The position numbers and the translations under genes were made by a program. Of a stretch of 64,000 nt of DNA, positions 1,933 to 50,473 are shown piece after piece (the stretch's first letter is position 1; every line of letters starts with the position of its first letter). Source of the DNA: Eledone cirrhosa (taxonomy: Eukaryota); the NCBI GenBank assembly GCA_964016885.1, contig OZ024741.1, positions 319,610,001 through 319,674,000 of the forward strand, read 5' to 3'. The notes beneath the pieces are model-generated. The model was not told where the DNA came from. It did no database searches and saw only the letters and a list, made by a program, of their open reading frames with translations.

Positions 1933-2030
<98 letters not shown>

Positions 2031-2188
2031 TTGGAATAAATGCTCTGAAATAGCGATATATATGTGAATATAGACATAGAATATTCGAAAATATTCTGTA
2101 TGTTTATAATAAACATTTTGAAGACCTAATCGCTATAGAATAGAATACGTCACGTATTACAATTAGATTCTCGATAAAAGCAAGGGAA

Positions 2189-2231
2189 GTAATCTACGCG
2201 TTTCATTCTTGTTAGAAATCATCAGGACTAC
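2189..2231 (-). ncRNA. Type I minimal hammerhead ribozyme (identical copies at 2499-2541, 2809-2851, 3119-3161)
   Basis: Reverse complement reads GTAGTC-CTGATGA-TTTCTAACAAGAAT-GAAA-CGCG-TA-GATTAC. Confidence 0.85.
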
Positions 2232-3553
2232 ATATCCAGTGCTTTTATCGAGAATGACACAGCTAGAGACTTATAGAATACTTAGCTGTGTACAGGAACT
2301 GGTTTGAAAGAGCGGTTGCCGGTCCGGCAGAAATTAGAAATTGGAATAAATGCTCTGAAATAGCGATATATATGTGAATATAGACATAGAATATTCGAAA
2401 ATATTCTGTATGTTTATAATAAACATTTTGAAGACCTAATCGCTATAGAATAGAATACGTCACGTATTACAATTAGATTCTCGATAAAAGCAAGGGAAGT
2501 AATCTACGCGTTTCATTCTTGTTAGAAATCATCAGGACTACATATCCAGTGCTTTTATCGAGAATGACACAGCTAGAGACTTATAGAATACTTAGCTGTG
2601 TACAGGAACTGGTTTGAAAGAGCGGTTGCCGGTCCGGCAGAAATTAGAAATTGGAATAAATGCTCTGAAATAGCGATATATATGTGAATATAGACATAGA
2701 ATATTCGAAAATATTCTGTATGTTTATAATAAACATTTTGAAGACCTAATCGCTATAGAATAGAATACGTCACGTATTACAATTAGATTCTCGATAAAAG
2801 CAAGGGAAGTAATCTACGCGTTTCATTCTTGTTAGAAATCATCAGGACTACATATCCAGTGCTTTTATCGAGAATGACACAGCTAGAGACTTATAGAATA
2901 CTTAGCTGTGTACAGGAACTGGTTTGAAAGAGCGGTTGCCGGTCCGGCAGAAATTAGAAATTGGAATAAATGCTCTGAAATAGCGATATATATGTGAATA
3001 TAGACATAGAATATTCGAAAATATTCTGTATGTTTATAATAAACATTTTGAAGACCTAATCGCTATAGAATAGAATACGTCACGTATTACAATTAGATTC
3101 TCGATAAAAGCAAGGGAAGTAATCTACGCGTTTCATTCTTGTTAGAAATCATCAGGACTACATATCCAGTGCTTTTATCGAGAATGACACAGCTAGAGAC
3201 TTATAGAATACTTAGCTGTGTACAGGAACTGGTTTGAAAGAGCGGTTGCCGGTCCGGCAGAAATTAGAAATTGGAATAAATGCTCTGAAATAGCGATATA
3301 TATGTGAATATAGACATAGAATATTCGAATAATAATATAGACATAAAATATTCGAAAAATGTTTATTATAAACATACAGAATATTTTCGAATATTCTATG
3401 TCTATATTCACATATATATCGCTATTTCAGAGCATTTATTCCAATTTCTAATTTCTGCCGGACCGGCAACCGCTCTTTCAAACCAGTTCCTGTACACAGC
3501 TAAGTATTCTATAAGTCTCTAGCTGTGTCATTCTCGATAAAAGCACTGGATAT

Positions 3554-3596
3554 GTAGTCCTGATGATTTCTAACAAGAATGAAACGCGTAGATTAC
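3554..3596 (+). ncRNA. Type I minimal hammerhead ribozyme (identical copies at 3864-3906, 4174-4216)
   Basis: Stem I GTAGTC/GATTAC, core CTGATGA, stem II TTCT-aaca-AGAA, GAAA, palindromic stem III ACGCGT, predicted cleavage after GUA (3590). It is enclosed by a 16-bp helix ATTCTCGATAAAAGCA/TGCTTTTATCGAGAAT. Confidence 0.85.
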
Positions 3597-4356
3597 TTCC
3601 CTTGCTTTTATCGAGAATCTAATTGTAATACGTGACGTATTCTATTCTATAGCGATTAGGTCTTCAAAATGTTTATTATAAACATACAGAATATTTTCGA
3701 ATATTCTATGTCTATATTCACATATATATCGCTATTTCAGAGCATTTATTCCAATTTCTAATTTCTGCCGGACCGGCAACCGCTCTTTCAAACCAGTTCC
3801 TGTACACAGCTAAGTATTCTATAAGTCTCTAGCTGTGTCATTCTCGATAAAAGCACTGGATATGTAGTCCTGATGATTTCTAACAAGAATGAAACGCGTA
3901 GATTACTTCCCTTGCTTTTATCGAGAATCTAATTGTAATACGTGACGTATTCTATTCTATAGCGATTAGGTCTTCAAAATGTTTATTATAAACATACAGA
4001 ATATTTTCGAATATTCTATGTCTATATTCACATATATATCGCTATTTCAGAGCATTTATTCCAATTTCTAATTTCTGCCGGACCGGCAACCGCTCTTTCA
4101 AACCAGTTCCTGTACACAGCTAAGTATTCTATAAGTCTCTAGCTGTGTCATTCTCGATAAAAGCACTGGATATGTAGTCCTGATGATTTCTAACAAGAAT
4201 GAAACGCGTAGATTACTTCCCTTGCTTTTATCGAGAATCTAATTGTAATACGTGACGTATTCTATTCTATAGCGATTAGGTCTTCAAAATGTTTATTATA
4301 AACATACAGAATATTTTCGAATATTCTATGTCTATATTCATATATATATATATATG

Positions 4357-4404
<48 letters not shown>

Positions 4405-5200: not shown

Positions 5201-6084
5201 ATATATAAGTTTCTCTTTTCTCCTAATTCGTTTGAGTTTCTAACTGGCACAAGACATGAAGAAAGGTGTATAACTGCAGTGGAGGTGATGGAGGTGATGA
5301 AGTAATGTTATTGCCAGAAATAGATCTAACCGAACCCGTAGATCCCATCTTCAGTTAAGTTGTTATAACAACAACAACAATGATAAGGCCAGCTATTTGA
5401 AGGGAATAGTTGATTAAATCGACCATTGTGCATTACTGGTATTATACTTTATCAACCCCAGTAGGATTTGCACTTAGAACGTAAAGGGCCAAAACTATAT
5501 GCTGCAAAGCATGTTGTCCAACACTCTACTGATACAGTCAATCAACCACCCTGACAACAACAACAACAATAATGATTGTTTCTACTTTAGGCACAAGGGC
5601 AGCAATTTGAAGGGGAGGGGGAAATTCGATTAAATCAACTCCAGACCATTACTGGTACTTTATGTTATCGCCCCCCGTAAGGATGAAAGGCAAAGCTAAC
5701 CTCAGCGGCATTTTGAACTCAGACTGTAAAAGGCTGTAACTCTATGCTGAAAAGTATGGTGTCCGATGCTCTACTGATACTGCCAATCCCCTGCCCTGGC
5801 AACAATAACAATAATAATAACTTCTTTTATTTGCCACAAGGGCATCTAATAGAGCAGGCACTAAAAAGACAAGTTACAACATTATTGTGGGGCTTTGCAT
5901 AGAAATGAGGAAAGGGGGTAAGATGTATACAGAGTAATATGTAATATTTGAAAAAATAACAAAATATACTGACTTAATGGACAAAATCGCCCAAGAGTGA
6001 TCGATAACACCTAACAACATTCATATAACTCCAGTTGTCATTGGAGTTTGGGGCTTAACCCTTTAGCATTCACATTACTCTATA

Positions 6085-7296
6085 TATTCTGTGCCACATA
6101 AAAGGCTTATGGCAAAACTCTGTGCAATGGGTGTGAAAGATGATCTTTTTAACTGGTTGAAATCCTTCATTCTCACTCGAAGAGAGGTAGTCATGGTTCT
6201 AGGACAGCATTCCTCACCGTATGAGATGTCATCTGGTGTACCACAGGGATCTGTTCTTGGCCCCCTTTTGTTTGTGGCATATATTAATGACATAGATGCC
6301 AACTTAAAGAATGCCATAGTACTGAAATATGCAGATGACATCAAGCTGTACCTTGAGATAAAAAGATCAGATCCTGAACACTATAGATCTTGCCTGCAAT
6401 CTGACCTGGACACAATGCAACAATGGATCACAGACTGGCAACTCAAGCTAGCTGTGGACAAGTGCACCACAATGCATTTTGGGAGTAAAAACCCAGCGTC
6501 CACATACTCCCTCCACAACACTAATATCAAGAAGTCTTCTTGTGAACGTGCCTGGCATTACGGTCAGCAGCGATTTGCGTTGGATGAAGCACATCTCTAA
6601 AATTGTCAAGAAGGCCGAGGGTGTCTAAACATCACTCAGCAAGACCTTTGTCAACCGCTCTGCAGCTATCTATTTAAGGCTGTACATAGCTATGGTGCGG
6701 CCACACTTAGAATTTGCATCACCAGTCTGGAACTCCTATCTTGCTCAGAACATTGACCGCCTGGAAACTGTTCAGAGACGTGCAACCAAGCGAATACCCT
6801 CCATCAGGCATCTACCATACTCTGAACGCCTTGCTTCCCTGGGCATGTATTCATTGAAGCTCCGACGTCTGGCAACTGATTTAGTAAACACCCACAAAAT
6901 TATTAACCATTTTGCCAACAACAACCCTGAGTACCTTTTTGATTTCCATGTGTCTAACACACGTGGGCATGCCCACAAAGTCAGAAAACAGCACAGTTCC
7001 CATGACTTTCGGAAGCATTTTTTCACGCTCAGAGTTGCTGAAGCATGGAACAAACTACCTGCATCAGTTATTAGCTGTTGAAACACTGCATCCTTTAAAA
7101 CCTCCATGCTTCCTGAGATTCACCAACACTACACCTAATATTCCCCCTCCATACACATACACACATGTATATCATGACTCATACACTATTCACTTCCCTG
7201 ACATTTGTATATTATTCTATGTACTATATATACATGCATCTTTGACGAGTTGTAATGCACTTGAGCACTTTACACAATAATTTCATTATTATTATT
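6085..7296 (+). mobile_element. CR1-clade LINE, 5'-truncated, frameshifted RT plus 3' UTR
   Basis: VPHKRL, SGVPQGSVLGPLLF..YINDI, YADD, VRPHLEFASPVWN, ETVQRRATK, RKHFFTLRV..WNKLP; ends in (ATT)n. Confidence 0.9.
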
Positions 7297-13380: not shown

Positions 13381-14597
13381 GTGAGTTGTAACATTATTTG
13401 GAAAATAATGTTTTGTCTATCTCCCAGAACATCCCTAGTCAATGAACACACACATAATCAAAGGTATTCTGGCTGTGACCTTTGTCTTTTCAGCTATTAT
13501 CTTAAATGCATCAGACTAAACTAAAACTTAAAAAAACAATAAAAAACATCTCATTGACAACAAACCACAAGCATTTATTTCCCAAGAACAAGATAATATA
13601 ACCAATGTGATTTACAAATTCAACTGCAAAAATAAAAATTATAAAGTTCATGAAACCAATTGTAAGCTCATCATACTTCTCCTCTTTGTGTATGTTGAAG
13701 CATTGTTAAGTTAGAATAAGAAACTGCATCAGGAGAAACAATGGCTGAAAATTGACAGTCTTGAGAGTATAGGGCAAAATGACTTGCCATATTTGTTATA
13801 TCTCTTTATCCTTTGAACTTTGCACTTCTTGCTTAATAAAAATTAAGTACAAATCCAGAGCAGGGTTTGCCCAAATCGTAACAGTGTCTGACAGGAAGCC
13901 TAACAATATTTGTTCTTGCTTTTTTGCCTTCTGAATACCTGGGTAGTAACCTTAATCTGTCACTTGTGGAAAGCATTCGAGCCAAGTCTTCAGTCTGAGG
14001 ATAACTTCTTCTCTACTCTAGATCAATGTTGGAGACTCTAGAAATTGTCATGGAAGTTGCACTTAGCTTCCTGTCAAATGATAAAATATACTCACACGCA
14101 CATTTTTTGTGCGTTTATGTCTCTGTTTTTTAGTATACTTGTGAATGTTGACTTGTGGTGGTGGTGGTGTTGGTGGTGTGTACAATTAAGTGTGCCAAAT
14201 AGATGGTCTATATATTTCTGTGTGTATTTGTGTCCATAACAACTCTGTATGTGTGTGTGTGTGATGCCTGGCATCTCTGTGTATATATGATGACTGCATG
14301 TGTATGATGTCTAGCTGTGTTTGTGTATGTGTGGTAACTGGCATGTTTGTTGTATGTATATATGATGACTGTACATGTGTAATGGATGGTGTGTGTATGT
14401 CATGATATGTGCATGTATATGTGTGTGATGATTAGCATGTGTGTTTTGGAGTGGTGTCTTGCATGTGTGTGAGTTATCTTGTGTGAAAAGAATATCTCAC
14501 TATCATTAGTATTTTGTAAGGATATTCCCTCACAGTTAGAAATGCAGTGAAATATTTATAGCTAAAGCACACACACACTCACACATAATGGAATAAA

Positions 14598-16200
14598 TAT
14601 ATCTATCTACCTATCTCATGTATATTTATATATATATTATCTACCTATCTCATATTTATATATATATTATCTACCTATCTCATGTATATTTATATATATA
14701 TTATCTAACTATCTCATATATATTTATATATATATTATCTACCTATCTCATATTTATATATATATTATCTAACTATCTCATATATATTTATATATATATT
14801 ATCTACCTATCTCATATTTATATATATATTATCTAACTATCTCATATATATTTATATATATATTATCTACCTATCTCATATTTATATATATATTATCTAA
14901 CTATCTCATGTATATTTATATATATATTATCTACCTATCTCATATATATTTATATATATATTATCTACCTATCTCATGTATATTTATATATATATTAGCT
15001 ACCTATCTCATGTATATTTATATATATATTATCTACCTATCTCATATTTATATATATATTATCTACCTATCTCATATATATTTATATATATATTATCTAC
15101 ATATCTCATGTATATTTATATATATATTATCTACCTATCTCATATTTATATATATATTATCTACCTATCTCATATTTATATATATATTATCTACCTCTCT
15201 CATATTTATATATATATTATCTACCTATCTCTCATATATTTATATATATATTATCTACCTATCTCATATATTTATATATATATTATCTACCTATCTCATG
15301 TATATTTATATATATATTATCTACCTCTCTCATATATTTATTTATATATTATCTACCTATCTCATATATTTATATATATATTATCTACCTATCTCATATA
15401 TATTTATTTATATATATATTATCTACCTATCTTGTGTATATTTATATATATATTATCTACCTATCTTGTGTATATTTATATATATATTATATCTACCTAT
15501 CTCATATATATTTATATATATATTATCTACCTATCTCATATATATTTATTTATATATTATCTACCTATCTCATATATATTTATTTATATATATATTATCT
15601 ACCTATCTTGTGTATATTTATATATATATTATCTAACTATCTCGTGTATATTTATATATATATTATATCTACCTATCTCATGTATATTTATTTATATATT
15701 ATCTACCTATCTATCTCATATTTATATATATATTATCTACCTATCTCATATATATTTATATATATATTATCTACCTCTCTCATGTATATTTATATATATA
15801 TTATCTACCTATCTCATGTACATTTATATATATATTATCTACCTATCTCATGTATATTTATATATATATTATCTACCTATCTCATGTATATTTATATATA
15901 TATTATCTACCTATCTCATGTATATTTATATATATATTATCTACCTATCTCATGTATATTTATATATATATTATCTACCTATCTCATATTTATATATATA
16001 TTATCTACCTATCTCATGTATATTTATTTATATATTATCTACCTATCTCATGTATATTTATATATTATCTACCTATCTCATGTATATTTATATATATATT
16101 ATCTACCTATCTCATGTATATTTATTTATATATTATCTACCTATCTCATGTATATTTATATATTATCTACCTATCTCATGTATATTTATATATATATTAT
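14598..16200. repeat. Minisatellite, ~30-34-bp unit TATTATCTACCTATCTCATGTATATTTATATATA
   Basis: About 50 tandem variant copies; the long ORFs here are low-complexity artefacts. Confidence 0.95.
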
Positions 16201-16206
16201 CAACAG

Positions 16207-16324: not shown

Positions 16325-16941
16325 GTAACAGATGTTCATTTTTACTTGATTTTTGTGTATCTACCTGAATATGTGCAAGTGTGTATCTTTTATATAGGCA
16401 GGGAATTGAGTTATTAGACTGAGTTATTAGAATATTGGATAGAACATTTTGCAGTATTCATTCCAGCTCTCTGCACTCTGAGTTAAAAATCTGCCAGGAT
16501 CAACTTTTCCTTTCACCCTTTTGAAGATAAAGTACCAGTCCAGTATTAGGGTCGATTCGCCCTCTGTATTTTTTTCTTACTTTTTCTCTCATACTCCCTC
16601 TCTTTCTTTGGAAACAAAATGTCAGCTGTGTCCAGACCTAAAGTGGGAATGGGCTCAGCTAGTTTTAATATTCCCAAACACACACTGTATGTCACTATGG
16701 TACACCTATGACTCCATCAGGACTTATGGCTACATACATATATCTTATATAATAAAATGTATTTTGAGTGTTTGTGTGCATGATAGAATGAGAGAGAGAG
16801 AGAGAGAGAGAAAGAAAGAGAAAGAGAGACTTTTTGCCGACGTAAGAGAAACACAAAAATACCCTCTCAAACATTTAGCCTATATGTCAGTAGAAGTAAT
16901 AACCTGAAGATCTTAAATAGTATATTTAACTAGGTGGACCC

Positions 16942-19327
16942 ATGTATGGGCCCCACAAAGACCACAAGACAGTCGACGATCCGACAACAGGACCACCAAC
17001 AAGACCTGTATGCGGAGAAAATATAGCTAGCAACTACAGGATCTCCTACTTCCTCTCAATGGTTATACGCCCCATAATCAAGATGTCCCCAGATGTATGT
17101 GACAGTACAGAGGACTTCTTCAGTAGAATCAGTGAGTGCAACAAAAACAAAAACCTATCCAACTGCATAATAGGCAGCATGGATGTGGTATCACTGTACC
17201 CATCCATTAACATTGATTTTGCTGTGGAAAAATGTGTGGAGATGATCATTGAGAGTGAGGTGGAGTTCTGCGATGTCGACACAGACAAACTGGGCCTCCT
17301 ACTTAGACTTACCTATGACACTGACTACCTAGACAGCCATGACCTTAGACGTTTCTGCCCCAGTAGACCCATAAGAGGTAGACCCCCCCACCATAACCTC
17401 AATGGCAAAAAAACTCCCATGGGAAGGTGGATTGGGTGGACCAAAGCTATATGGACCCCCCAAAACAATGGTCAGGTAAGAAAAATGGTCGCACATGCAA
17501 TAGGGGCTAGTATCACAACTATCCTAAAGGGCCACATATTCAAATTCAACGAGAAGTTCTACACCCAAAATGAGGGAGCAGCCATTGGCATCAGCATAGC
17601 TGGTGACGTTGCCAACCTTTTTATGGTATGGTGGGAAAGGAGACTCAAATATCTCCTTGATGAGGGCTCCATAGACCTCATCATGTACTCTCGTTACGGA
17701 AACGACATCAATATAGTAATAAGGACATCCCCACAAGAGAGTACTAACAAGTTTGATTTAGAACGTAGCACAATGGAAAGCATCCAGCAGATAGCTAATT
17801 CCATACACCAGAGTATAACTGTAACTATCGACTACCCTTCCAAACACCCTAACAATAGACTACCTGTATTAGACACGGAACTCTGGATTAACACTATAGA
17901 CGAGAGAGTCCAAATTCTCCACTCACACTATGCTAAACCCATGGCCTCCAAATACGTGATACTCAAAAACTCAGCAATGTCCAGTAGTGCTAAGTTTAAT
18001 ATTCTGATCGCAGACTTGGTACGAGTGATGAAGAACGTGTCCCGCATGTGCGACCCAAAAGAGATGGAAAGACACATCCAACACTTCATCAACCACATGC
18101 AGTTCTCTGGCTACAACCAAAGAGACAGAATCAGAGTATACGAAGGAGCCACGGAGAAGTATAAGACCCTCATAGAACTGGACATGAAAGGAATTTGCCC
18201 ATTATACAGGAGCAAATCATGGAATAGATTAGATAGGACTAGACATAAGATAGGGAAAGCCGCCTCATGGGACGACAACCAGAGATACCAGAGTGTCATG
18301 TTTGTGGACGCTACTCCTGGAGTGAAATTAGCTAACCAGTGTAGAAAGGCCATGAGAAAGACCCACTTAAAGATTAAGGTGGTAGAAAAGCCAGGAACCA
18401 CCATAAAATCCCTGATCAGAAAAACCTACCCTTTTAAGAAAACCCACTGTACTAATAGGAAATGTATTATATGTAAAGTAAACCCCCGGATAAACTGTAA
18501 AACTAGAAATGTAGTCTATAGCATAAGATGTACAGAGGGTACTTGCAGAAACATAACAACAACATACATAGACGAGATAGCTCGTAGAACTAAAAGGACA
18601 AAAAACGGTTCAGTACTATATGAACATGCCAGACAACAACATGACAGTAACATAGACAACATAGAAATTAGAATAATATCTAAACATAGAAATGACCCAG
18701 CAGATAGGCAAATCAGAGAGGCCAGCGAAATAGAACTTAGAAGGCCAAGGCAAAACAGAAAAAATGAATGGAATAACAACACCTAAACAAACAATACTGA
18801 CATAAGAGAAGTATAAATAAATAAATAAATACATACACAAGCACAATAACAACAAACACATATAAACACACACTAGTAAACTAAGATAGAATACAATAAC
18901 CAATACACAGTCACCCAAATACGAACACACATCAAACACTATACACACGCAAACGCATGCGCAGAGAAGACAAAAAAAAATAAAATAAACAGACTAAATA
19001 AAGAAGGCGTAGGCATACAATACAATGGGAGGAAACATAATAGCACCACTGACGATGTTACAGATGTGCAACAAAAGAACTTTGTTAGACTATATATATG
19101 TTTGTGTCTATATTGTATCTGTATTTTTGACCGTTGGTCAGTCAATGGCAACATTGCAGACTGAATAAATTAAATTAACCGATATAAAAGACACAGAAGC
19201 AAAAACCAACCAAACAGTGAGTGTGTTCTGTTATTAATTCTGGCAATATTATTACACAAATATGACCCTCCCCAAGTATAACAATATTTGTTTCGACACA
19301 CGATTTCATATCAAAAACCTCGCAAAA

Positions 19328-19330
<3 letters not shown>
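16942..19330 (+). mobile_element. Penelope-like retroelement, 5'-truncated (RT plus Cys-rich linker plus GIY-YIG; ORF 16942-18786), catalytically degenerate
   Basis: MYG..KDHK, RPV, SMDVVSLYPSI, Q.EGAAIG, YSRYGND (degenerate Y.DD), LPVLD, CxxxxCxxC linker, NVVY.IRC...TYIDEIAR (degenerate YIGET). A degenerate CTGACGA HHR-like motif lies near 19049. Confidence 0.9.
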
Positions 19331-22669: not shown

Positions 22670-25600
22670 TCACAAGAAATAAACAACTGGTGGAAACTAT
22701 CCGAAAGGACTCCACAATACAAACGGAAGGGAAAACCTTCCCCACTAACGACCCACCCCCAAACCTCAAACTTATTAGGGTAACAACCATACAGCTCGAA
22801 ACTTTAAAAAAGAACTTCCCACATGATGTGGGCCTCCCTTGCCAAAAGCCCCTTAACCGTGTCCTGCTAAAAGGATTCTCTCCATCCCCAAACACCCCCA
22901 ATCTGGACAAGGAGATCGAACAACCTGACCTCCAGGAAACGAAAAGGTAAGTGTTCCTGCCTTTTCTCTCCCTAACTCTTCTTCACCAACATGGCGACTA
23001 TACAAGTTGGATGTTTGAATGTACGTGGCCTGGGCATGCCCTGGAAACAGGGCCAGCTTTTAAATGATCTCAGGTCAGATTGTATAGAAGTGATAGCCAT
23101 CATCAAGTCCAGGATTCACGACAAGCAGCAGCTAACCCCCATGTTCAATGACTTTGAGATCTATGCATCTCTCTGTCAGCCAGGAGGTGGAGGGGGCGTT
23201 GCTGTTCTGTTTCGAAAAACTTGGATCTCAAAGCACAGACGATTCACTTAGACCCGGAGGGCAGCTTGATGGTCCTGTACGTGAATGGTAGTGAAGGTGG
23301 AGCTTTCAGTCTGGTGGCCATATATGCCCCAACTGGGACATCACGACCAGAGTTCTTCAAGCATCTGGAGCCATTCCTGGGAACGTCTCGCTCCTTAGTG
23401 TTAGCTCCTTAGTGTACCACTGTGGACGTGGAGCAGCCGCACTGGGTCTTCTAGATCATATTTAGAGAGATTTTTAATTAGACAGAATGATAAGGAAACA
23501 TTAAGCTGTCCACAAATGCACATCGTTGCCTATTCAGACCACAAATTAGTCACCTGTGTAGTCAACCTTGATAGAATACATAGACAGCGACCCAGATACT
23601 GGAAGCTAAACATGTCACTTCCGGCGCGTAAGGCCTACAGTAAATGGATTAGCACCTTAGTTAAGTGCCAGTTGACGGGGGCAATCGTCAACAACAGGTG
23701 GTGGAGCTCTCTCGAGAAAGCAATTAGAATAGAATCGATAGCATTTTGCAAGGAAGTAGCTTTAGAAAAAAACAAAACCGGAAAGGAACTGGTAGCTAAA
23801 GTAGAAGAGGCACTTAGGATGGCAGTACAGCTGACGTACTAGCGGCGAGAACGATGCTAGACCAGTTCTTCAACGTGAAAGACAAAGGTTGTATTGTCAG
23901 AAGTAGAACATGTGCTCTAAGAAACGAGGCAGCCAAAGCTCTTAGCTGGGCCCAAGTGGCAGAGGCGAAAAGTGGCACCAAATCCACAATTCGGTCTTTG
24001 CAAGACAAAGATGGACGCATTCTACTTGAATCCAACCAGATTTACACGGCCTTCCAGCAGCATTTTGCGCAACTGTTTGGGCAAAGCGATACATCGAGAG
24101 TGGTGATGGACTTCAGCTCCTACCTAGACAGTGTACCACGACTCTCGAGCATGGATGCAGAGAGCTGCAAAAAGCCGATCACAGCGGGTGAAATAGAAGA
24201 TGCCCTAGGCTGCTACGGGAAACACAAATCACCCAGTTTAGATGGTCTACCCTATGAGGTTTACATAGGCATGCCAGACTTGTTCACTGGTGTCCTCAAA
24301 GCGGTCTACTGCAACTGGCAGCAGAAAGGAAGGATTGCCAGTTCTGTAGGCAGAGGCGTAGTAACGCTGATCAGGAAAGATGAGAACAAGGGGGATGACA
24401 TAAGCAATTTCAGACTCATAACTCTGCTCAACACAGAGTTAAGATTTTGGCCAAGGTGTTAGCAGCGAGGCTGGCACTTGTCGTCGAGAACCTGGTAGGG
24501 GAAGCGCAAACGTGTGCAATCCCGACCAGGTCCATACACGACAACCTCCACCTCATGCGATACATCATAGAGAGGGTAGGGTGTAAACCTGGCTTCGGTG
24601 GGGCTCTGATCAATTTAGATCAGTCTAAGGCATTTGATAGGGTCGACCATCATTACTTGGAAGCGGTTCTCAAGGCGGCCGGCTTCGGTCCCGTCTTCAG
24701 AAGCTGGATCATGCCATGCACACCAACATCTGCTCGGCAGTCAAGGTGAATGGCTTCCTATCAGAGCCATTCCAAATCATGCCTTCCATCTGTCAGGGAT
24801 GCCTTCTCTCCGCCATTCTGTATGTACTGACTCGCGAGCCATTACTGTGGAAGTTGGAGTTGTTGCAGGGCATCCCGATCGAACCAGGACTGCGGAAAGC
24901 AGCGTCAGCCTGTGCCGACGACATAACCGTAATGGTGTCGAAAACCTCGGAAATCGGGGTAATCGGCAACCTATTACAGGAATACAAAACCTTGACAGGA
25001 GCAAGACCAAACCCAAACAAGTCTGTCGGTTTGCAACTCGACACATGGAGAGGAAAACCGATGCCTTCTGACAGTGTCACTGGACGCTGGACGGAAGGAC
25101 CGGTGAAATTGCTTGGGGTCTTGTTTGGTCCAGACCTCCAGGTGGACAAGAACTGGAGGTGTTTGTACTCATCCAGAAGTGGGCTGAGTGGAAACTCACC
25201 TTGAAAAGTCGAGCGGAGATGGCGAACACTTACATAGCATCTGTCATCTACTACCGCTTGACAGCCGTGCCTTGTCCATGTGAATACCTCACCAAAATGG
25301 AGCGCCTACTCTTCAAGTTCCACTGGAAGAAACAGGCTCCATTGGTGAGGAGATCCATCTGCTGTCAACACCCTTCTAACAGAGGGCTGGGCATCCCGAG
25401 GCTGATGATGTGCAAACACGTGCTGAGGCTATGCCATCTCCAGGTATTCCTGACCGGTGAAAAAGTGTGGCTGTCATTTGTGAGACAAGCTCTTCCACAA
25501 CTCGTCTCACTAACAGAGCTGCAGTCCTGGGTCAAGCGAAGACCAAAAATGGGTGCCTGGCACCTCGAGTGCCTTCAGGCGCTCACAGCCCTCTACGAAG

Positions 25601-26545
25601 CGGAAACGGCAATCAGCGGAGACTCCACTTTGAAATTCTATAGTGGATTAGTGGAGGATAAGTGCGACGACGTTCTCGAGGAAACTCTAGGCATCGAGGA
25701 GGACGAACTGACCAGTCTGTTCGGGAGGACTTTCCGTCCAGGGCCTATGGATTACTTCCAGAGGTCTCTGGCCTGGCAGTGCTACCAAGGTGCTCTACCA
25801 GTTCGAGACAAAATCTACAGGCACGGACGCCCTGGCAGAGATCCTGCCAAAAGGACCTGTCCAAGATGCGAGCAGGACATCGAAACCATTCTGCACACAA
25901 TTGTTCAGTGCCCAGGGGTGACCGACCTGTGGAATTATGTCGAACAGCTACTGTCACGTGTGGGACGCATCCAGTTGTCAGCCGAGTCCATCGTGAGGAT
26001 CACCCCGCTGCCTTTATTTAAGAATGAAGGAGAGGCGGTTTTCCTCTGTCTGGTGGCTATGGTGAAAGAGGTAATATGGTGGACGAAGTTAAAAGGACTG
26101 AGGGCAAACACCTTTCTCTCTGGACAACAACTTATCCCCTTCTTTAAGTACCACTTCAAAAGGAAGGTGAGAGTGGAGAGAGAGGTGCTAGACCCCAGTA
26201 AATTCGCTGAAAGGTGGGTGAATGTGCCGAAAATGGCCCGAGTGAATGGGCCTTCTCTGTATATAAACCTGTAGGTTGAGGAAGATAAACAGAGGGAAGA
26301 CAGGAATACCTACAAAACGTGTTCCTGGTGTTGAGGGTTGTTCTATCCATGGGGTGTAAAACAACCCTGCAGTAACGTTCCCCTCTATTGAGGATTTCAA
26401 TTGTTATTTTGTTATTTTATTATATATAGTTTATTGTTATTTATTAATGTTAAAGTTATATGATTGTTATGTAAAACCCCCTCTGTCACGTCTTGTAATG
26501 TCCCATTTTTGTACGCCCTCTGTGGCAAATAAAGAAAGATATCTA
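22670..26545 (+). mobile_element. Tx1/L1-clade non-LTR retrotransposon, near-complete ORF2 (APE, RT, C-terminal Zn knuckle), frameshifted
   Basis: MATIQVGCLNVRGL (APE start), SDHKLV, YWKLN, KSPSLDGLPYE, NFRLITLLNT, LDQSKAFDRVDH, ACADD, CPRC...ETILHTIVQC; 3' AATAAAGAAAG. Confidence 0.9.
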
Positions 26546-27782: not shown

Positions 27783-30193
27783 GAGAAAAAATTTACGAAA
27801 TGGAAATGCGGGTATATAGAATTTATTAGGTAATAATTGTTTCTATAGTGTATGAGTTACCTATATCTCGCTATTTGAATAATACACAAATATTATCAAA
27901 AACCGAAAGTACACTGTAAGCCAACACACCATGTCATCAGACCTTTGTATTAGAATGATATGAAAATATTTTATACACAAGATAAAAGATAAAGAAGGAG
28001 GTAGGAAGAGAAGGGGAGGAGGGAAGTGAGTAAGGTGGAGGGAGTCTTAGGGTTTAAGACTGTCAGACTAGTAGAGATTGTGAAGAGAGAATGTTTTGGC
28101 AGCTGTTAGCTTAATGAGGCGTGCTAAGGTTGGCTGGGAAGTAGATACTTCTAGTGGTGTTGTTCGGACAAAATTCAGTTAGAGGGGTCAAAGTGGTACA
28201 ATGTCACAGACAAGTTATTAGGGCTATTATAGTAGCAGGTTATTTCTAAAGGGGTCCAGAAAAACAGTGTTTAGTACTATTATTATAGAAAGCCATATCT
28301 AGTGTATAAACATATAAAACAGAAATTTGCAAACGTTGGTGTAAAAAGATAACATTATATGCATTTAAAAAAAGAAAAAGTCGTTTTCAAACGATGGTTA
28401 CAGTATAGAGAACGTTCAATTTTGCTGTTCAAAAGTTTGTTTACCGACGTTAAAATGCAGTATATCTCTAAGTTGCATAACTTGCAGAATCGCTGATTTT
28501 GCTGATATGCAGGCGCAGCTGCAATAATTTGCCAATCAAGGGAGAACGCTTGATTGTTCCTCCGAAGCTGCCAGGCTTTATCGGCGAGGGTTGTTACGGA
28601 GCGCATTTTCTCGTGCCTGATCGAAGATCGATGTTGGTATAGGCGAGCCTTGAAAGAAGTTGCGGTACATCCGACGTAATACCATTTGTTGGTCCCGGAA
28701 TTTATTGTACACCGGTAGACAATATTGCGTGCTAAGCACTGGTTATTCAGTGGGCACGTACCTGGTTTGGTGCAGTTACAACTATTTTTATGTTTTGCAG
28801 TAGAATCCTGGATAGTTTGGTGGGGTTGTGGTTGCGTGTTAGTGCGTTGCATGTTGCTATGCTGGTGCGCTGAGTCATTAGGGATGTACTTATTTAGTAT
28901 TGCTGAGATGAGTTTTCTAATTAGTTGTTCTATGTTAGGTGCAGTGGAGTATGAGAGTCTAATGGTGCGCGAGTTAAAGATTTTATAGTATTTATGTGAA
29001 GTTGTAAAGTGTTTATTGATTAGTGTATAGAATTGTGAGATAATCTTAGTGCTAATAGAAGAATTGTACACGGGGTTATACCATATGTACTCTCTACGTC
29101 TGACTCTATTTGCTGGTTTGCACCTGTTAGTATGCCTATTGATGTGTGTGTGTGGTGCAATACTAGTTCGACTTAGATGTGTTTTATTCCTAGTACTTAT
29201 GTGGTTATCGTCTAGATATTCAATTTTCTCGCAGTAACCAGCTTTTCTAAGTGCGTCATTATAATATTCAGCATGCTCGTTGAGGGTTTGCAAATTAGAC
29301 GACAGTCGGGAGATCCTTATGGATATATTTTTAGGGATAGATTTAATAATGGAATGAGGATGGTTCGATTTTACATTAACGTACTTAAGATTTTCATTAA
29401 GTTTGTGAAATGGCTCTATATTACCGTTATTAAGGTTTAAGGTAACATCCAAGAAGTTGACCTCCTTAAGATTGTGTTCAAAGGTAATATTAAGCCCTAG
29501 TTCTAAGAAAAGTTTCCTAATGTTTTTACGCCGCCTTTCTAGGTTTTGTTTGTTCATATTCTTGACTAATAGAAGTGTATCGTCGCGGTATATTCCGCCG
29601 TGGAGGTCCGTAAATTCGCTCTGGAGTCTATGGGCTATATAGATCCTTTGTATATGACATTGTACCACTTTGACCCCTCTAACTGAATTTTGTCCGAACA
29701 ACACCACTAGAAGTATCTACTTCCCAGCCAACCTTAGCACGCCTCATTAAGCTAACTGCTGCCAAAACATTCTCTCTTCACAATCTCTACTAGTCTGAGT
29801 CTTAAACCCTAAGACTCCCTCCACCTTACTCACTTCCCTCTTCCCCTTCTCTTCCTACCTCCTTCTTTATCTTTTATCTAGTGTATAAAATATTTTCATA
29901 TCATTCTAATACAAAGGTCTGATGACATGGTGTGTTGGCTTACAGTGTACTTTCGGTTTTTGATAATATTTGTGTATTATTCAAATAGCGAGGTATAGGT
30001 AACTCATACACTATAGAAACAATTATTACCTAATATAAATTCTATATACCCGCATTTCCATTTCGTAAATTTTTTCTCCATATTTTCTCCGGATTTTAAA
30101 ACACACTTTATTATACGTTGAGCAATCTCTGACGTCAGTTGACTCCATCCAATGCAACTACTTAGTAACATTGGAATACAAATTATCTAATTC
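27783..30193 (-). mobile_element. Penelope-like element, 5'-truncated, with ~424-bp inverted pLTR arms (27783-28206 and 29655-30078); partial RT plus GIY-YIG ORF (28355-29654)
   Basis: GIYRDD, VNFLDVTLNL, YVNVKSNHP, IWYNP, NIVYRC...YYVGCT..FKARL..H, CKLCNLE. Arms are reverse complements with few differences; the element is embedded in (TA)n. Confidence 0.92.
29915..30031 (+). ncRNA. HHR-like motif with 90-nt stem II region (mirror copy 27828-27944, minus strand)
   Basis: AGGT-CTGATGA-cATGGTGTGT...ATACACTATa-GAAA-CAATTA-TT-ACCT. Stem III is one mismatch from ACAATTGT. Confidence 0.55.
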
Positions 30194-30334: not shown

Positions 30335-31603
30335 AAAATTGAAGACTAAAATCCAGAGAGGGCTCGATAAGGAAAATATATATCAAATATATAAGAACCG
30401 AAGAGCAAATATTTATTAAAATAACAGATTAAAGTTTAAGCAAAGAATCGCTGCTTTCACCCTTAACGGGATCTTCTGAAACTAACAAAGTCAATCTGTA
30501 AACGCAGAACTGGATATTTCAAAAAACGTTGCAACCGGAGGAAGACAGGAAGACGATACTTTGGTTCATGGTGACGTTCGCTGGCAAAGAACGGGAAAAA
30601 ACGAATAATACGTCATTAATAGGAGCGGTGAAAAACAATTACGCGCAAAGACAGAACCACGTTTATGGTATAAAAGAGGTCGTAGATTAATGTTCTCTAA
30701 GTGGTGCATAGAGACGTTCTCTGGCAATGAACGAAAAAACGAAGATAATAAGTCATATGTGGAGCGTGGAGAACAATAGCGTGCAAAGACAAAACCACGT
30801 AAATGGTATAGCAGAAGTCGTAGACTAAAATTCTAACTAGGAGACCGAATGAATCTCCGCTACAGAGTTAAGAACAAAGTAAATAAATACAATACAGAAG
30901 TAATAGGAACAAATAAATACATACACGCAAACAGATACGTACATACACAAGCATACGCAAAACCTTACCATAGGTATACAAAACCACGCACATATAAATA
31001 TGTGTATGTGTGTATGCTTGTGTACAAATAAATAAATAATTATATAAACGTATATAAGTAAATAAATACGTATATAACAAGCGCACACACATACCTACAA
31101 ATAAATACATGAAGGTTCGGAGACGTAAGTCAACTTTGTTCTTAACTCTGTAGCGGAGATTCATTCGGTCTCCTAGTTAGAATTTTAGTCTACGACTTCT
31201 GCTATACCATTTACGTGGTTTTGTCTTTGCACGCTATTGTTCTCCACGCTCCACATATGACTTATTATCTTCGTTTTTTCGTTCATTGCCAGAGAACGTC
31301 TCTATGCACCACTTAGAGAACATTAGTCTACGACCTCTTTTATACCATAAACGTGGTTCTGTCCTTGCACGTAATTGTTTTTCACCGCTCCTATTAATGA
31401 CGTATTATTCGTTTTTTCCCGTTCTTTGCCAGCGAACGTCACCATGAACCAAAGTATCGTCTTCCTGTCTTCCTCCGGTTGCAACGTTTTTTGAAATATC
31501 CAGTTCTGCGTTTACAGATTGACTTTGTTAGTTTCAGAAGATCCCGTTAAAGGTGAAAGCAGCGATTCTTTGCTTAAACTTTAATCTGTTATTTTAATAA
31601 ATA
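30335..31603. mobile_element. Non-coding PLE-type fold-back element (arms ~30410-30880 and ~31133-31603) with internal ~135-bp subrepeats
   Basis: Long inverted arms, a one-sided terminal extension, an HHR variant in each arm and (TA)n flanks. Same family as 46801-47860. Confidence 0.8.
31530..31580 (+). ncRNA. Hammerhead ribozyme variant with CAGAAGA core (copies 30433-30483 minus, 46824-46874 minus, 47712-47762 plus)
   Basis: AGTTT-CAGAAGA-tCCC-gttaa-(G/A)GGt-GAAA-GCAG(C/A)GATTCTTTGC-TT-AAACT; all three stems can form. Confidence 0.65.
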
Positions 31604-31605
31604 TA

Positions 31606-31734
<129 letters not shown>

Positions 31735-31848
31735 ATATCACGCTGAAAACACCGGTTCTCATCCGATCACCGAAGTTAAGCAACGTCGACGTCGAGCCTA
31801 GTTAGTACGTAGACGGGTGACCGCTTGGGAACCCTAGGTGCCGTAAGC
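31735..31848 (+). pseudogene. 5S rRNA-derived pseudogene, slightly 5'-truncated
   Basis: CACGCTGAAAACACCGGTTCTCATCCGATCACCGAAGTTAAGCAACGTCG...GTTAGTAC.TAGA.GGGTGACCGC.TGGGAA matches invertebrate 5S; contains a 6-nt duplication (CGTCGA twice). Confidence 0.88.
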
Positions 31849-31909
31849 GTTTAATTTTTGTCTAGCATGGAAGAACGGACGTAAAACGGTGATGATGATA
31901 TATATAAAT

Positions 31910-34509: not shown

Positions 34510-36770
34510 GGAAGTGGTTACACAACAGTTAGTTCACCATACCGAGAACAATTGTTTCACCTTAGCAGATCCTCAGCTCGGAATGGGCATGGTTATAGGA
34601 ACAGGAAGGACAACCGTATGAACGCGCATGCGCAGAAACCCGATCACTTCACACAGGCAATACTAGACTGCGTGCAAGAGGTGTAAGGGAGATAACTGCG
34701 AAAGTCTGAAAAGTTTCTAGGTTGAAAATAAAATTACAAAGAACGCTATTACTTCTAAATATAAGAAATCTAACCCTATGGCCTACCACGACATTAATAC
34801 AGAAGCCAAGGAACTTGCCGCCGACCTTAAGGTAGATAAGAAGCTACAATCTCTAGCTAAGTGGGAGGCGTTCCTCACCCTGAAAGATCACAAGATAGAT
34901 TTTACCCCACATGTAGACTAATAAACCCGGCACGCAGAGATATGGGACTAGTCAGTAAGGCCATACTTAGAAACATAGTTAAGACCATTAGGACCAAGTC
35001 CAACCTGCCCCAGTGGGAGAACAGCGACTCCGTAATTAAGTGGTTTAACTCCTTAAAATCCCAAAAAGCGAAGTTCACACAGTTTGACATTGTCGATTTT
35101 TACCTGTCGATATCAGAGACCCTGTTAAACAAAGCGTTGGACTTCGCTACCACTTATACCACGTCAATGGTTTAGACAGGGAAATTATCGCTCACTGCCG
35201 GAAAACCCTCCTCTTCAACGACGGAGTAGCCTGGGCAAAGAAGTCTACATCTTCAGACCTGTTCGACATCTCCATGGAATCGTTTGACAGTGCTGACGTA
35301 TGTGACCTGGTTGACCTATTTATTTTAAACATATTACGTGTTAGATTCCCGGACTTCACACAGGAATATACCGCGACGATGGACTGACTTTATCAAGCCA
35401 TAAAAGTGGTTATGACCTCGACCGGTTTAAAAAAGACTTAGCTTCTACCTTCAATGAGTTAGGACTTAGGATAACAGTAGCCACCAACCTCTCTAGCGTA
35501 AATTTCTTAGACATTAATTTAGACCTTCGCACACCCACCCACAGACCCTTCCATAAGCTAAACGAGAAACTCAATTACATTCACAAGGACTCATGCCACC
35601 CTCCCACTGCTTTTAGAAACTTTGTTAAGAATATCAGTACTAGAATCTCAAACCTCTCCTCTAATAAGGCTATCTTTGACAGGGCGGCACCCTACTATAA
35701 CACGGCGTTGGCTAACAGCGGTTTCTCACAACCTATCACCTACTCTCCCACTAGCAACAACACCATTAAGAAAAGTAAGCGCAACAATAGACAAACTATC
35801 TGGTTCTCTCCTCCCATCTCACTCAACATTAAAACCAATGTAGGAAAGAAATTTCTAGCCCTCTTAGATAGACACTTTCCCATAGGTCATAAATACCGCT
35901 CCATCTTTAACCGACACAAAGTTAAACTAGGATAGTCCTGCGCTAAGAACATGAAGGCCCACATCACCAGCAGCCGTAGGAGCAACACCCCACCAGGGTG
36001 CTCTTGCCGTAAGCCTGCGGCTTGCCCCCTTCAACAGCAATGCAACACACCAGCTGTAATTTATGAAGCTGTGGTCACTTTCAACCGACCAAACGAATCA
36101 CAGGAGGTCAAATCCTATGAGGGCATGGCGGAGGGCCGATTTAAGAAACGTTTCCTGAACCACCAGTCCACCTTCAGGTACTCGGACAGACGTTCATCCA
36201 CGAAACTCGCGAGCCACGTATGGTCCCTCAAGGACTCAAGTATAGACTACTCCATTCAATGGAAAGCCATCACTAAGTCCAAGCCATACACAAGGGGAAA
36301 ACTGACGTGTGGCTTATGTATTGACGAACGAATAACTATTCTAAAGAGATTACGCAACAATAGACAAACTATCTGGTTCTCTCCTCCCTTCTCACTCAAA
36401 TGAGAAATGAATTTTTCACACGTTGTCCACACGTCGCCAAACACCTATTGCATAACTACAAGGCTCTGGACTGATTCTTTGTTATTTTATTTTCAACCTA
36501 GAAACTTTTCGGACTTTCGCACTTATCTCCCTTACACCTCTCACATGCAGTCTTGTATTGCCTGTGTGAAGTGACCGGGTTTCTGCGCATGCGCGTTCAT
36601 ACGGTTGTCCTTCCTGTTCCTATAACCATGCCCATTCTGAGCTGAGGATCCGCTAAGGTGAAACAATTGTTCTCGGTATGGTGAACTAACTGTTGTGTAA
36701 CCACTTGTACCTAACTCGTCCCACAGACTGAGTGCTCTACCACTACAGATATTACCTTCCCGTGTTCCAC

Positions 36771-38342: not shown

Positions 38343-40543
38343 GGATTGCTAGACAATGTGTCAAGGAAAACCGTGATATTGTCGGGGAGAAGTGTGTCCG
38401 TAATGATAATGGTTACTTGTGCTCACTGATACTGATAAGAAGATAGCCTGGAAGTGTCACTACGAGAGACTATTAAATGAGGAGAATAAATGGGAAAAAG
38501 ATAGTCTGCCCCAAATCGATCCAATAGAAGGACCAGTGGTGCAAGTTAAAGGTAGTATAATAAGTAAGGCAATCAAAGATATGAAGACAGGCAAGGCAGC
38601 TGGGCCTTCGGAGATAGTTGCTGAGATGTTGAAGGCATCTGGTATGGTGGGACACACTATGGTCATCCGTATAGTTAACCAAGTAATACAGAATGGGGTC
38701 ATACCGAAAGACTGGCATAGCAGCATCATCATTAACTGCTACAAGGGTAAAGGGGATGCTCTAGATAGGGGAAACTATAGAGGCATTAAGTTAGTTGACC
38801 AGGTCATGAAGGTCACAGAAAGAGTTATAGCGCAATTAATCAGAGAGCGAATTGATCTAGATGAAATGCAGTTTGGGTTTGTGTCAGGTAAAAGTACCAC
38901 AGATGCTCTTTTCCTTGTACGACAACTACAAGAGAAGTACCTAGCTAAAAGTAAACTCCTCTACTTAGCTTTTGTAGACCTGGAGAAAGCTTTTGACAGA
39001 GTCCCCCGCTCCATTATCTGGTGGGCTCTTTGAAAACTAGGTGTAGATGAATGGCTTGTGAGAGCTATATAAGCTATGTATAATGAAACAGTCAGTAAGG
39101 TTAGAATTAACAATGAATATTGTGAAGAATTTAGTGTAAAAGTTGGCGTTCATCAAGGCTCTGTCCTTAGCCCCCTCTTATTTATTATTGCCCTTCAAGC
39201 TATAACAGAGGAGTTCAAGACCGGCTGCCCGTGGGAACTCCTATACGCACATGATCTAACGCTCATAGCTGAATCAATGGCTGAACTAGAGAAGAAATTC
39301 GAAACATGGAAGCATGGCCTAGAATCAAAAAGCCTTAAAGTTAACTTGTCTAAGACTAAAGTTCTAGTTTGTAGAAAGGAAAATAGGGCACAGGTACCCT
39401 CAGAGAAATGGCCATGCTCAGTGTGTAGGAAAGGAGTAGGCAGAAATTCCAATTTATGTCCCAAATACAAAGTATGGGTACATAAAAGATGTAGTGGATC
39501 ACAGGTAAACTATCTAAGAACGTAGACTTTATATGTGGCCAATGCTCGGGTGCAATAAGTAGCAAGTGTCCAAAGGATACTAGCTCCTTCTATTGCCCAG
39601 ATGGTTCTATAGAAATAGTAGACACTTTCCGTTACCTGGGTGACAAAATCAGCAGTGGTGGAGGGTGTTCTGGAAGTACAGTAGCCAGAGTCAGAACGGG
39701 ATGGAAAAAGTTCAGAGAGCTTATACCACTGTTGGCCACAAAAGGTTTCTCTCTAAAAATGAAAGGCAGATTGTATGATGCCTGTATACGAACAGCAATA
39801 CTACATGGCAGTAAGACATGGGCATTACGTGCAGAGGACCTGCGTAGACTGGAAAGGAATGAAGCATGCATGCTCCGTTGGATGTGTACTAGTAATATAC
39901 GTGAACGGCAAAGCATAAATGAACTAAGTGAGGAATTAGGAATAAGAGGGATCAGATGCTGTTTACTTGAGAGAAGACTACATTGGTACAGTGCAGGGTG
40001 ATCAAAATTGATGGTAGTTACGGAGTAAGCAGACCCAGAAAAACTTGGGATGATCTGATAAATTCCGACCTTACACACTTTCATCTCTCTAAGACAATGT
40101 CTCTGGACTGAGATCTTTGGCGCTACGCAGTAATACAGAAGACCCACCTTGCCTATGTACAAAGCGAAACCTACAGTCAGTAGGCACTTCTTAACCAAAT
40201 ATACACCCCAATCCACTACCCCTACCCTATCCTCCCACTCCCACCAACAGCAAGAGATAATGAGAGTGACATCGTGTAGGTGTCACGACAAAAAACACAC
40301 ACAGTCCACGCTGTAATGTGGCCGTATAGGTAACACGGTAAAAAGTTCTCAGTTCCACACTGTAAATGTGGTTGGTGTTAGGAAGGGCATCCAGCCGTAT
40401 AAAACCTGCCAGATAGTCCTATATGAGCGAGACATGGTCACCCGACCAACCTTGCCTCAAGTGGGACAACTCCCGTCTAACCCATGCTAGCGTGGAAAAT
40501 GGACGTTAAACGAAGATGATGATGATGATGATGATGATGATGA
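38343..40543 (+). mobile_element. RTE-clade LINE, 5'-truncated and degraded, with (GAT)n tail
   Basis: MKTGKAAGPSEI.AEMLK, YKGKGD..DRGNYRGIKL, QFGF, FVDLEKAFDRVPR, GVHQGSVLSPLLF, LYAHDL, Cys-rich insert WPCSVC...WVHKRC, KGRLYDAC. Confidence 0.9.
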
Positions 40544-50432: not shown

Positions 50433-50440
50433 TGATAATA

Positions 50441-50473
<33 letters not shown>

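Follow-up and report, generated by a model that had tools for sequence, protein, structure and literature searches.

Head-to-head arrays of a hammerhead retrozyme in Eledone cirrhosa: two fixed end sites and probable insertion by a Penelope-like element

How does a short non-coding unit come to be inserted as two tandem arms that face each other? The question is raised by an array at positions 2030–4340 of a 64,000-nt stretch of Eledone cirrhosa DNA (NCBI GenBank assembly GCA_964016885.1, contig OZ024741.1, positions 319,610,001 to 319,674,000 of the forward strand), the whole of which is referred to below as the window. The array consists of 7.4 units of 310 bp, identical to each other, in two head-to-head arms within a (TA)n tract, and each full pass through the unit carries one hammerhead ribozyme motif. 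The array is very probably a retrozyme mobilised by a Penelope-like element (PLE). The full model, that of a non-autonomous retrozyme without long terminal repeats (non-LTR), inserted by a PLE from a single monomeric and probably circular template, is likely. Its most specific form, in which each insertion is the work of one PLE dimer rolling round one closed 310-nt RNA from both cut ends of the (TA)n target, with obligately different start sites 35 nt apart, is given slightly better than an even chance. Unit positions are numbered from window position 3591, the first base past a predicted ribozyme cut, as position 1.

The rule by which the arrays end was derived from 65 insertions, i.e. the one in the window and 64 others, all located within the first 115 Mb of contig C1. 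Eleven of the 64 were picked by a ribozyme pattern and the others by paired or unpaired end patterns, and part of the listed ends were read. Left out of the counts were an array incomplete at the edge (L041), L065 and part of L034 (the same as arrays L066 and L035) and one duplicated copy of L155. L130, which has a degenerate end, was excluded from the variant tallies, and L040, L130, L154 and L159 from the mutation spectrum.

Two arms are present in 56 of the 65 insertions, and these are all head-to-head and none tail-to-tail. The outer ends lie at unit positions 130–139 (A) or 165–172 (B), two sites separated by about 35 nt. Of 119 outer ends, 115 border directly on (TA)n; many of them were selected through a pattern that contains TA repeats, but the 12 ribozyme-picked arrays agree nonetheless. 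Wherever both ends of a two-armed insertion were read, one was of type A and the other of type B (55 of 55), and for the 56th (L074) a B end is present in the genome-wide list of end patterns. When positions 1–128 Mb of C1 were scanned for both end patterns on both strands, the divergent end pairs at most 20 kb apart were A+B in 43 cases out of 43, with no A+A or B+B (p about 1e-13), and 38 of the 124 ends were unpaired under the exact patterns. These coordinate-based pairs overlap with the 55 sequence-read insertions and are therefore not independent of them. Among the ribozyme-picked arrays, nine of 12 have two arms and A+B ends, while of the other three one has a single arm, another runs into a gap and the third is incompletely covered. 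Loci picked by one unpaired end are two-armed A+B in 15 of 20 cases, the remaining five being one-armed.

The inner ends, in contrast, are scattered across the unit. The preliminary description expected dispersed arrays with differing start phases, and this holds for the inner ends, which vary freely, and not for the outer ones, which are fixed at two sites. According to a scripted count of 55 head-to-head junctions, 29 have 1–5 nt of microhomology, one has 16 nt, seven are blunt and 18 contain inserts; one junction, at L036:2599-2870, has captured 272 foreign bases. The A and B arms do not differ significantly in length (p 0.12), and 97 of 110 arms are longer than one unit, with more than 26 units in L074. 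Both ends of an insertion lie within (TA)n, which would mask any target-site duplication; where non-LTR retrozymes have such a duplication, it is longer than 4 bp.

The inversion was at first thought to serve transcription from either side. This is not supported: the arms are head-to-head and the inversion recurs in 56 of the 65 insertions; it is a by-product of integration, and the rule rather than a one-off. With the arms in this orientation, a transcript reading through from the flank would meet the antisense arm first and could fold back over about 1 kb on the sense arm. The head-to-head layout, the one-sided tail of 30–40 bp and the microsatellite target together are the signature of PLEs. 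Mobilisation by a PLE, previously put forward by analogy, is thus now supported by the anatomy of the ends.

The nature of the template may be judged from the variants carried by the arms. Only 116 of 177,675 bases are stray with respect to the arm majority, i.e. a within-array divergence of 0.065%. Among 47 informative insertions, which comprise 20 substitution haplotypes, both arms have one majority haplotype in 43, as against 13% of 2,162 pairs taken across insertions. A variant private to its insertion is found in every unit of both arms in 12 of 56 cases; if each insertion were made from one monomer, about 18% (10 of 56) would be expected by arithmetic from the stray-base rate, and if linear multimers were copied, stray bases would stay rare. 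The predicted cleavage site is passed without trace: 574 passes across it contain two stray bases and no indel, and only two of 120 inner ends fall within 5 nt of it (4.3 expected), so that there is no run-off. The haplotypes, the private variants and the seamless copying of the cleavage site suggest that the template was one monomeric RNA, probably a circle. Of the circular or multimeric template proposed earlier, the monomer or circle is favoured by the haplotypes.

Editing of A to I was considered as a source of the variants and is not put forward: the recurrent changes A20G and A276G are suggestive, but the stray single bases have no excess of A to G (2 of 62). Both changes (unit positions 20 and 276) lie in paired regions and are seen against several haplotype backgrounds, and one A-to-G change switches inside an arm of L135, which may reflect RNA editing or a template switch.

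A hammerhead of type I is recognised in the unit by the core CUGANGA, GAAA and UH with stems I and II. The motif CTGATGA-14 nt-GAAACGCGTA is present in all seven copies, one per full pass. In the first plus-strand copy the core CTGATGA/GAAA is accompanied by a 4-bp stem II below a U-U pair and by the palindrome ACGCGT at helix III. Stem I (3554–3559 with 3591–3596), stem II and a perfect 16-bp helix all form in the predicted fold of the monomer, which has a z of -4.38, none of 100 shuffles being equally stable. The further helices that had been described (CACAGCTA, TAGCGAT, TGCCGG and ATACGT) all lie within the minimum-energy fold. A chance origin of the ribozyme is excluded, as its 43-nt sequence has 4,177 exact copies genome-wide and the reversed control has none. 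None of the 31 arm-fixed variants of this family (Rz1) falls on the 16 core and palindrome bases, and several fall on free ribozyme positions (N7, 10.1, loop II and wobble changes in stem I).

Helix III is unable to form inside one motif, and two copies pair over 6 bp of the palindrome ACGCGU at -9.5 kcal/mol. A dimer of paired hammerheads joined through helix III is described in PMC4209133 (here and below, PMC4209133, PMC7229834, PMC7761336, PMC8557442 and PMC8969392 are cited for their accessible text). The 2-bp palindromic helix III of the present motif predicts its use as a dimer. That metazoan retrozymes in general cleave as dimers, as was stated in the preliminary description, is overstated: according to PMC7229834, amphibian retrozymes need dimers, and most invertebrate ones cleave efficiently. 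Nor is the term circular RNA replicon supported in an autonomous sense, as the ribozyme is present in only one polarity of the unit.

In the window, the array interrupts a (TA)n microsatellite, the halves of which lie at 1910–2029 and 4341–4397. The left arm (2030–3329, minus-sense, 4.19 units) has its outer, 3' end at unit position 165, the long, tailed B end, and its inner end at unit position 105. Its first 35 nt (2030–2064, minus strand), found at the left end only, correspond to unit 131–165, i.e. the interval bounded by the two fixed end sites, and may be compared with the tail of PLEs (PMC8557442, PMC11167929). The right arm (3356–4340, plus-sense, 3.18 units) runs from unit position 76 at its inner end to unit position 130 at its outer, 3' end, the short A end, at which CATATATAT of the unit itself adjoins (TA)n. 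Both arms are mismatch-free exact pieces of a single 310-bp multimer. Between them is the head-to-head junction at 3330–3355, an insert of 26 nt with almost the same sequence as the end of the left arm, which may be a templated repair scar. The array was previously said to start at 2031 and to contain seven units; its left end is 2030, while the seven motifs and seven complete passes are confirmed. It is also not a clean palindrome, since the arms have unequal lengths and their ends do not fall on the same unit positions.

As described earlier, four hammerheads face one strand and three the other. Those on the minus strand lie at 2189–2231, 2499–2541, 2809–2851 and 3119–3161, with predicted cuts after 2195, 2505, 2815 and 3125. 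Those on the plus strand lie at 3554–3596, 3864–3906 and 4174–4216, with predicted cuts after 3590, 3900 and 4210, so that the predicted 310-nt monomers or circles are 3591–3900 and 3901–4210 (plus strand). An extended stem I domain (3529–3618, plus strand) encloses the ribozyme core by stem I and the 16-bp helix (3529–3544 with 3603–3618). The most conserved module of the unit, positions 69–189 (3659–3779, plus strand), is about 80% identical to sister families and contains both end sites; it is a candidate for the region where the PLE protein binds and starts. The unit has a GC content of 0.33 and its longest stop-free frame, when circularised, is 59 codons. An open reading frame (ORF) for reverse transcriptase (RT) and GIY-YIG is absent, and the element is therefore non-autonomous.

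The size of the family was estimated by exact pattern scans of the 3.0-Gb assembly. A 33-nt piece of the unit has 15,066 exact copies, which is a lower bound on the number of units and corresponds to about 4.7 Mb if each represents a full unit. There are 1,286 A-type ends at (TA)n and 727 forward-strand B-type ends, the reverse-strand B count being inflated by a variable gap in the pattern. An estimate of roughly 1,300–1,600 insertions at about nine units each is obtained, and the family is young and recently active. The numbers of ribozyme copies and unit pieces show that the arrays are dispersed, contrary to the possibility that the unit occurs only at this locus. With its tandem unit of 310 bp (150–450 bp in the class), type I hammerhead in each unit, GC content below 50%, lack of coding capacity, self-paired monomer and dispersed copies, the element is supported as a non-LTR retrozyme. 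Sequencing runs X1, X3 and X6, which carry three other organism labels, each yielded one closed contig of 340 nt, with a depth of 10–15 and identical in sequence to the unit. The simplest reading is trace carry-over of an abundant repeat, from which a shared circular RNA would be indistinguishable.

Related families exhibit a similar pattern. Rz2 has a unit of 314 nt and 2,648 candidates, the copies of which are about 90% alike; it aligns to Rz1 over the whole monomer, most closely at unit 69–189. At the 25 Rz2 loci read, the ends lie at the two homologous sites and the arms are often head-to-head. In most copies of Rz2 the hammerhead core is kept, while stems I and II and the long helix are changed compensatorily, and the extended stem I domain is retained with altered sequence. 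In a third variant, Rz3 (L091), the palindrome is longer and the core is damaged, and both Rz2 and Rz3 have other self-complementary sequences at helix III. These older families (L077:6385-6698, L079-L103 and L091:2341-3094) end at the same two sites as Rz1 and are likewise arranged head-to-head, but their arms mostly have one to two units. A short palindromic element in (TA)n at L052:640-800, with 576 candidates genome-wide, has a stem II like that of Rz1 and ends about 30 nt later. The (TA)n flanks of L044-L067 and L104-L112 are crowded with the ends of unrelated hammerhead elements, with more than 30 distinct motifs.

One PLE family of the same genome follows the same end rule. This young Neptune-like family has an intact frame of 1,217 residues with a C-terminal GIY-YIG domain preceded by a CX4CX2C motif. 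It targets (TA)n, and all eight complete divergent pairs have one short and one tailed end. The intact frame (L059) has a long Asn-rich insert, and its tail lies inside the start of the ORF. The window contains a 5'-truncated copy of this family at 16930–19330 (plus strand), which carries a hammerhead-like motif of its own and has its tailed end within (TA)n. The window also contains a piece of a further PLE family at 28355–29716 (minus strand), represented by frames of about 780 residues in the genome, and one of another, older family at 35345–36403 (plus strand), neither of which matches the retrozyme. Pfam named no domain in four PLE-like ORFs of the window, which were classified from motifs read in the sequences and from their ESM Atlas neighbours, to which GIY-YIG and RT families are assigned. 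A short hammerhead element beside one PLE copy has only the stem II region in common with the unit. A look-alike hairpin ahead of the short end of the Neptune-like PLE was also considered, and was no better than in shuffles.

With these observations, a course of insertion may be proposed. A tandem arm would be transcribed, and hammerheads paired through the palindromic helix III would cut out 310-nt monomers, in keeping with the structure and the known class. Each monomer would be closed into a circle, or its ends would be held together by stem I. A dimer of a PLE protein, with its reverse transcriptase and GIY-YIG endonuclease, would bind the unit 69–189 module and cut both strands of (TA)n, and each free DNA end would prime reverse transcription, one at unit position ~130–139 and the other at ~165–172; both spots are AU-rich and able to pair with (TA)n, and the end positions and their one-of-each pairing are as observed. 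Both polymerases would then roll round the same template, for less than one to more than 25 turns judging from the observed arm lengths, and would leave the shared haplotype that is seen. The cDNA ends would be joined by microhomology or a short templated patch, as in the observed junctions, so that the finished insertion is head-to-head and has its tail on one side.

A number of observations weigh against this model in whole or in part. Nine of the 65 insertions are one-armed or cut, and all those read, except that of the window, come from the first 115 Mb of one contig. At the gathering threshold of Rfam no hammerhead is called, the best match being HH9 at 19.2 bits against a threshold of 52 (E 0.053); a fluoride riboswitch match (E 2.6) was dismissed as chance. 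The pair G10.1-C11.1, typical of canonical and PLE hammerheads (PMC4209133), is U-U in the window haplotype and A-U in T287A haplotypes and most Rz2 copies, and minimal PLE hammerheads are weak according to the same source. The sparing of the core would be expected by chance at about 0.2 (by arithmetic) if the 31 variants were evenly spread, and is weak alone. The arms are discordant in four of 47 insertions; in L135 a variant is fixed in one arm and present in two of six units of the other, i.e. with a switch in mid-arm; and in L035, L036 and L074 a minority variant is repeated within long arms, which would need later recombination, a multimeric template or assembly error. The tail of the Neptune-like PLE is about 46 nt rather than 35. 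Finally, no partner PLE was found among the three families sampled, which were seeded from ORFs of the window: neither blastn nor a profile built on 14 copies of the module (best E 0.71) linked any of them to the unit, and the score of a direct alignment was matched by 229 of 1,000 shuffles.

To the same side belong two reports that favour the strongest of the rival explanations, in which the RNA inserted by a PLE is a long linear transcript left uncleaved by a slow or vestigial hammerhead, and the arrays later grow by unequal crossover and are made alike by gene conversion from arm to arm. In PMC11167929 the PAc ribozyme was dispensable for insertion in vitro and uncut RNA was the main substrate. 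Only one of nine Xenopus retrozyme dimers was cleaved in vitro, eight remaining uncleaved, and local amplification by unequal crossover was favoured (10.64898/2026.07.22.740005). Uncut RNA would explain the absence of run-off at the cleavage site equally well, and the repeated minority variants of L035, L036 and L074 are also consistent with it. However, the private variants fixed in both arms leave conversion little time at a divergence as low as that observed, arrays only shorten when linear multimers are copied, and the covariation of the ribozyme stems between Rz1 and Rz2 speaks against a vestigial hammerhead. This explanation is considered fairly unlikely. A closer relative of the proposed model, in which the template is a cleaved linear monomer with its ends held by stem I and a precise jump from the 5' to the 3' end at each turn, or else two RNAs of one source locus, is considered improbable. 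The ends of the monomer would indeed be held together by stem I and the 16-bp helix, and the haplotype switch inside one arm of L135 fits such a template. Template jumps, however, usually add or lose bases, and neither the clean passes across the cleavage site nor the lack of a pile-up of inner ends there suggests that they took place.

Two further explanations are less likely still. The spread of an ordinary satellite at the DNA level, by circular DNA, Helitron-like rolling circles or recombination, with the ribozyme as a dead relic, would accord with the tandem organisation and the sub-threshold Rfam score. It is already largely refuted by the end anatomy, for the ends are polarised, with the outer ones fixed in (TA)n, the inner ones free and the A+B pairing strict, and a protein-coding PLE obeys the same rule; the strong fold and the covarying stems also speak against it, and it is rated as very improbable. 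That the inversions are assembly artefacts from fold-back reads is hardly credible. Long palindromes are hard to assemble, as is stated for PLE insertions in PMC8557442, and the L033 array ends at a gap and the L155 array is duplicated next to one. Fold-back would, however, mirror flanks and ends, whereas unique flanks, unequal arms, unlike ends and locus-specific junctions are observed. Contigs of sequencing run X2, which is possibly not independent of the assembly, also pass from the unit to TA-rich sequence, at 3729 and 3760 (unit positions 139 and 170). Insertion by a PLE from one monomeric, probably circular RNA remains the preferred explanation.

Several other repeats of the window may be recorded here. 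Two arms of about 80 bp each, which form an almost perfect inverted repeat between (TA)n tracts at 724–802 and 803–881 and were noticed by eye, are possibly another short two-armed insertion. A 5S rRNA-like sequence (68.8 bits) at 31725–31849 (plus strand) starts inside (TA)n and may be a retrocopy or a 5S-derived short interspersed nuclear element. An AT-rich minisatellite of 34 bp with 48 copies and a strong strand skew occupies 14593–16201, and a related repeat of 138–141 bp, with dimers at several places, occurs at 30562–30828, 46953–47234 and ~47600–47713. There are also several fragments of the long interspersed nuclear element (LINE) type, at 47972–50442 (minus strand), 23405–26274 (plus), 54865–56468 (minus), 38410–40001 (plus) and 6067–7081 (plus); Pfam gave an RVT_1 match for 47972–49909.

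The retrozyme class itself and the proposal of PLE mobilisation are already known (PMC7229834, PMC7761336). So far, the mobilising enzyme and the circular template of animal retrozymes have been proposed from co-occurrence and homology (the same two sources and the accessible text of 10.64898/2026.07.22.740005), and the mechanism of the tandem and inverted insertions of PLEs and their one-sided tail is called 'undefined' in PMC8557442 and is partly explained in PMC11167929. A young, nearly error-free family with more than 1,000 independent insertions turns these matters into a rule that may be counted, i.e. head-to-head arms, one short and one tailed end, and one haplotype. The 310-nt substrate, for which start sites are predicted, also brings both questions within reach of a single in vitro reaction. 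If true, the unit would serve as a minimal cis element by which a circular RNA could be inserted in a target-primed reaction from two ends. If the rolling of a PLE dimer round a circle is also true, the arrays would be direct genomic proof of circular RNA as a template of animal retrotransposition, the inverted copy and one-sided tail of PLEs would be two results of one asymmetric two-ended reaction, and the genome would contain more than 1,000 kilobase-scale perfect palindromes from which double-stranded RNA could arise.

The literature covered, outside of which lie most subscription journals and supplements, yielded no retrozyme described as having inverted arms, a tail or an A+B pairing rule, and no inverted arms, tail or microsatellite target are mentioned in the accessible text of the retrozyme papers PMC7229834 and 10.64898/2026.07.22.740005. 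The nearest prior observations are pairs of minimal hammerheads on opposite strands, 100–700 bp apart, in Schistosoma, which are ascribed to truncated PLEs (PMC4209133), and the multicopy non-autonomous Chlamys elements (PMC8557442).

The metazoan non-LTR retrozymes of coral, mussel and axolotl (PMC7229834) and of Xenopus (10.64898/2026.07.22.740005) resemble the present element in their non-coding tandem unit of about 300 bp with 33% GC, the type I hammerhead in each unit, the short palindromic helix III, the self-paired monomer, the thousands of dispersed copies and the co-occurring PLEs. They differ in being described, in the accessible text, as plain head-to-tail tandems. Their link to PLEs consists of co-occurrence and terminal-repeat homology, while here it consists of the integration anatomy, with no homology to a PLE found in the three families sampled. 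Expression, cleavage and circles have been demonstrated for the known retrozymes; here cleavage and circles are predicted.

Endonuclease-containing (EN+) PLEs, such as Neptune, Naiad and Poseidon (PMC8557442, PMC11167929), share with the present arrays an inverted 5'-truncated copy, a tail of 30–40 bp at one end, a (TA)n target, a hammerhead upstream of the end and two internal start sites. According to PMC8557442, (TA)n is the target of Naiad, a motif is proposed for such a bias in Neptune, and the inverted copy often has its tail at one end only; PMC8969392 repeats the general anatomy. In PMC11167929 a PLE protein, modelled as a dimer, cuts and extends both strands in vitro from two internal starts that bound the tail. 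What is 'often' the case in the accessible text of these papers is thus counted here as 55 of 55. EN+ PLEs differ in forming partial tandems of a 3–4 kb element, whereas the retrozyme, which has no ORF, forms many-unit arms of a 310-nt RNA. The non-autonomous MRC1-type derivatives of PLEs in Chlamydomonas (PMC8557442) are likewise non-coding, multi-copy head-to-tail insertions mobilised by PLEs. Their 3' end, however, resembles that of an autonomous partner, and most Chlamys elements lack hammerheads, while the retrozyme has one in each unit and no match to a partner was found among the three families sampled.

Viroid-like circular RNAs and newt satellite 2 are small structured RNAs with hammerheads active as dimers; they differ from the retrozyme, which has its ribozyme in one polarity only and gives no sign of the RNA-to-RNA replication that, with ribozymes in both polarities, marks viroid-like autonomous replicons. 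In the twin priming of LINE-1, both target strands prime on the RNA, and the inverted part is joined by microhomology. Both-strand priming and a microhomology-joined inversion are thus common to LINE-1 and the proposed reaction. LINE-1, however, starts at the poly(A) and at a random internal site, whereas the starts of the retrozyme are both fixed, about 35 nt apart, and both of its products can be many units long.

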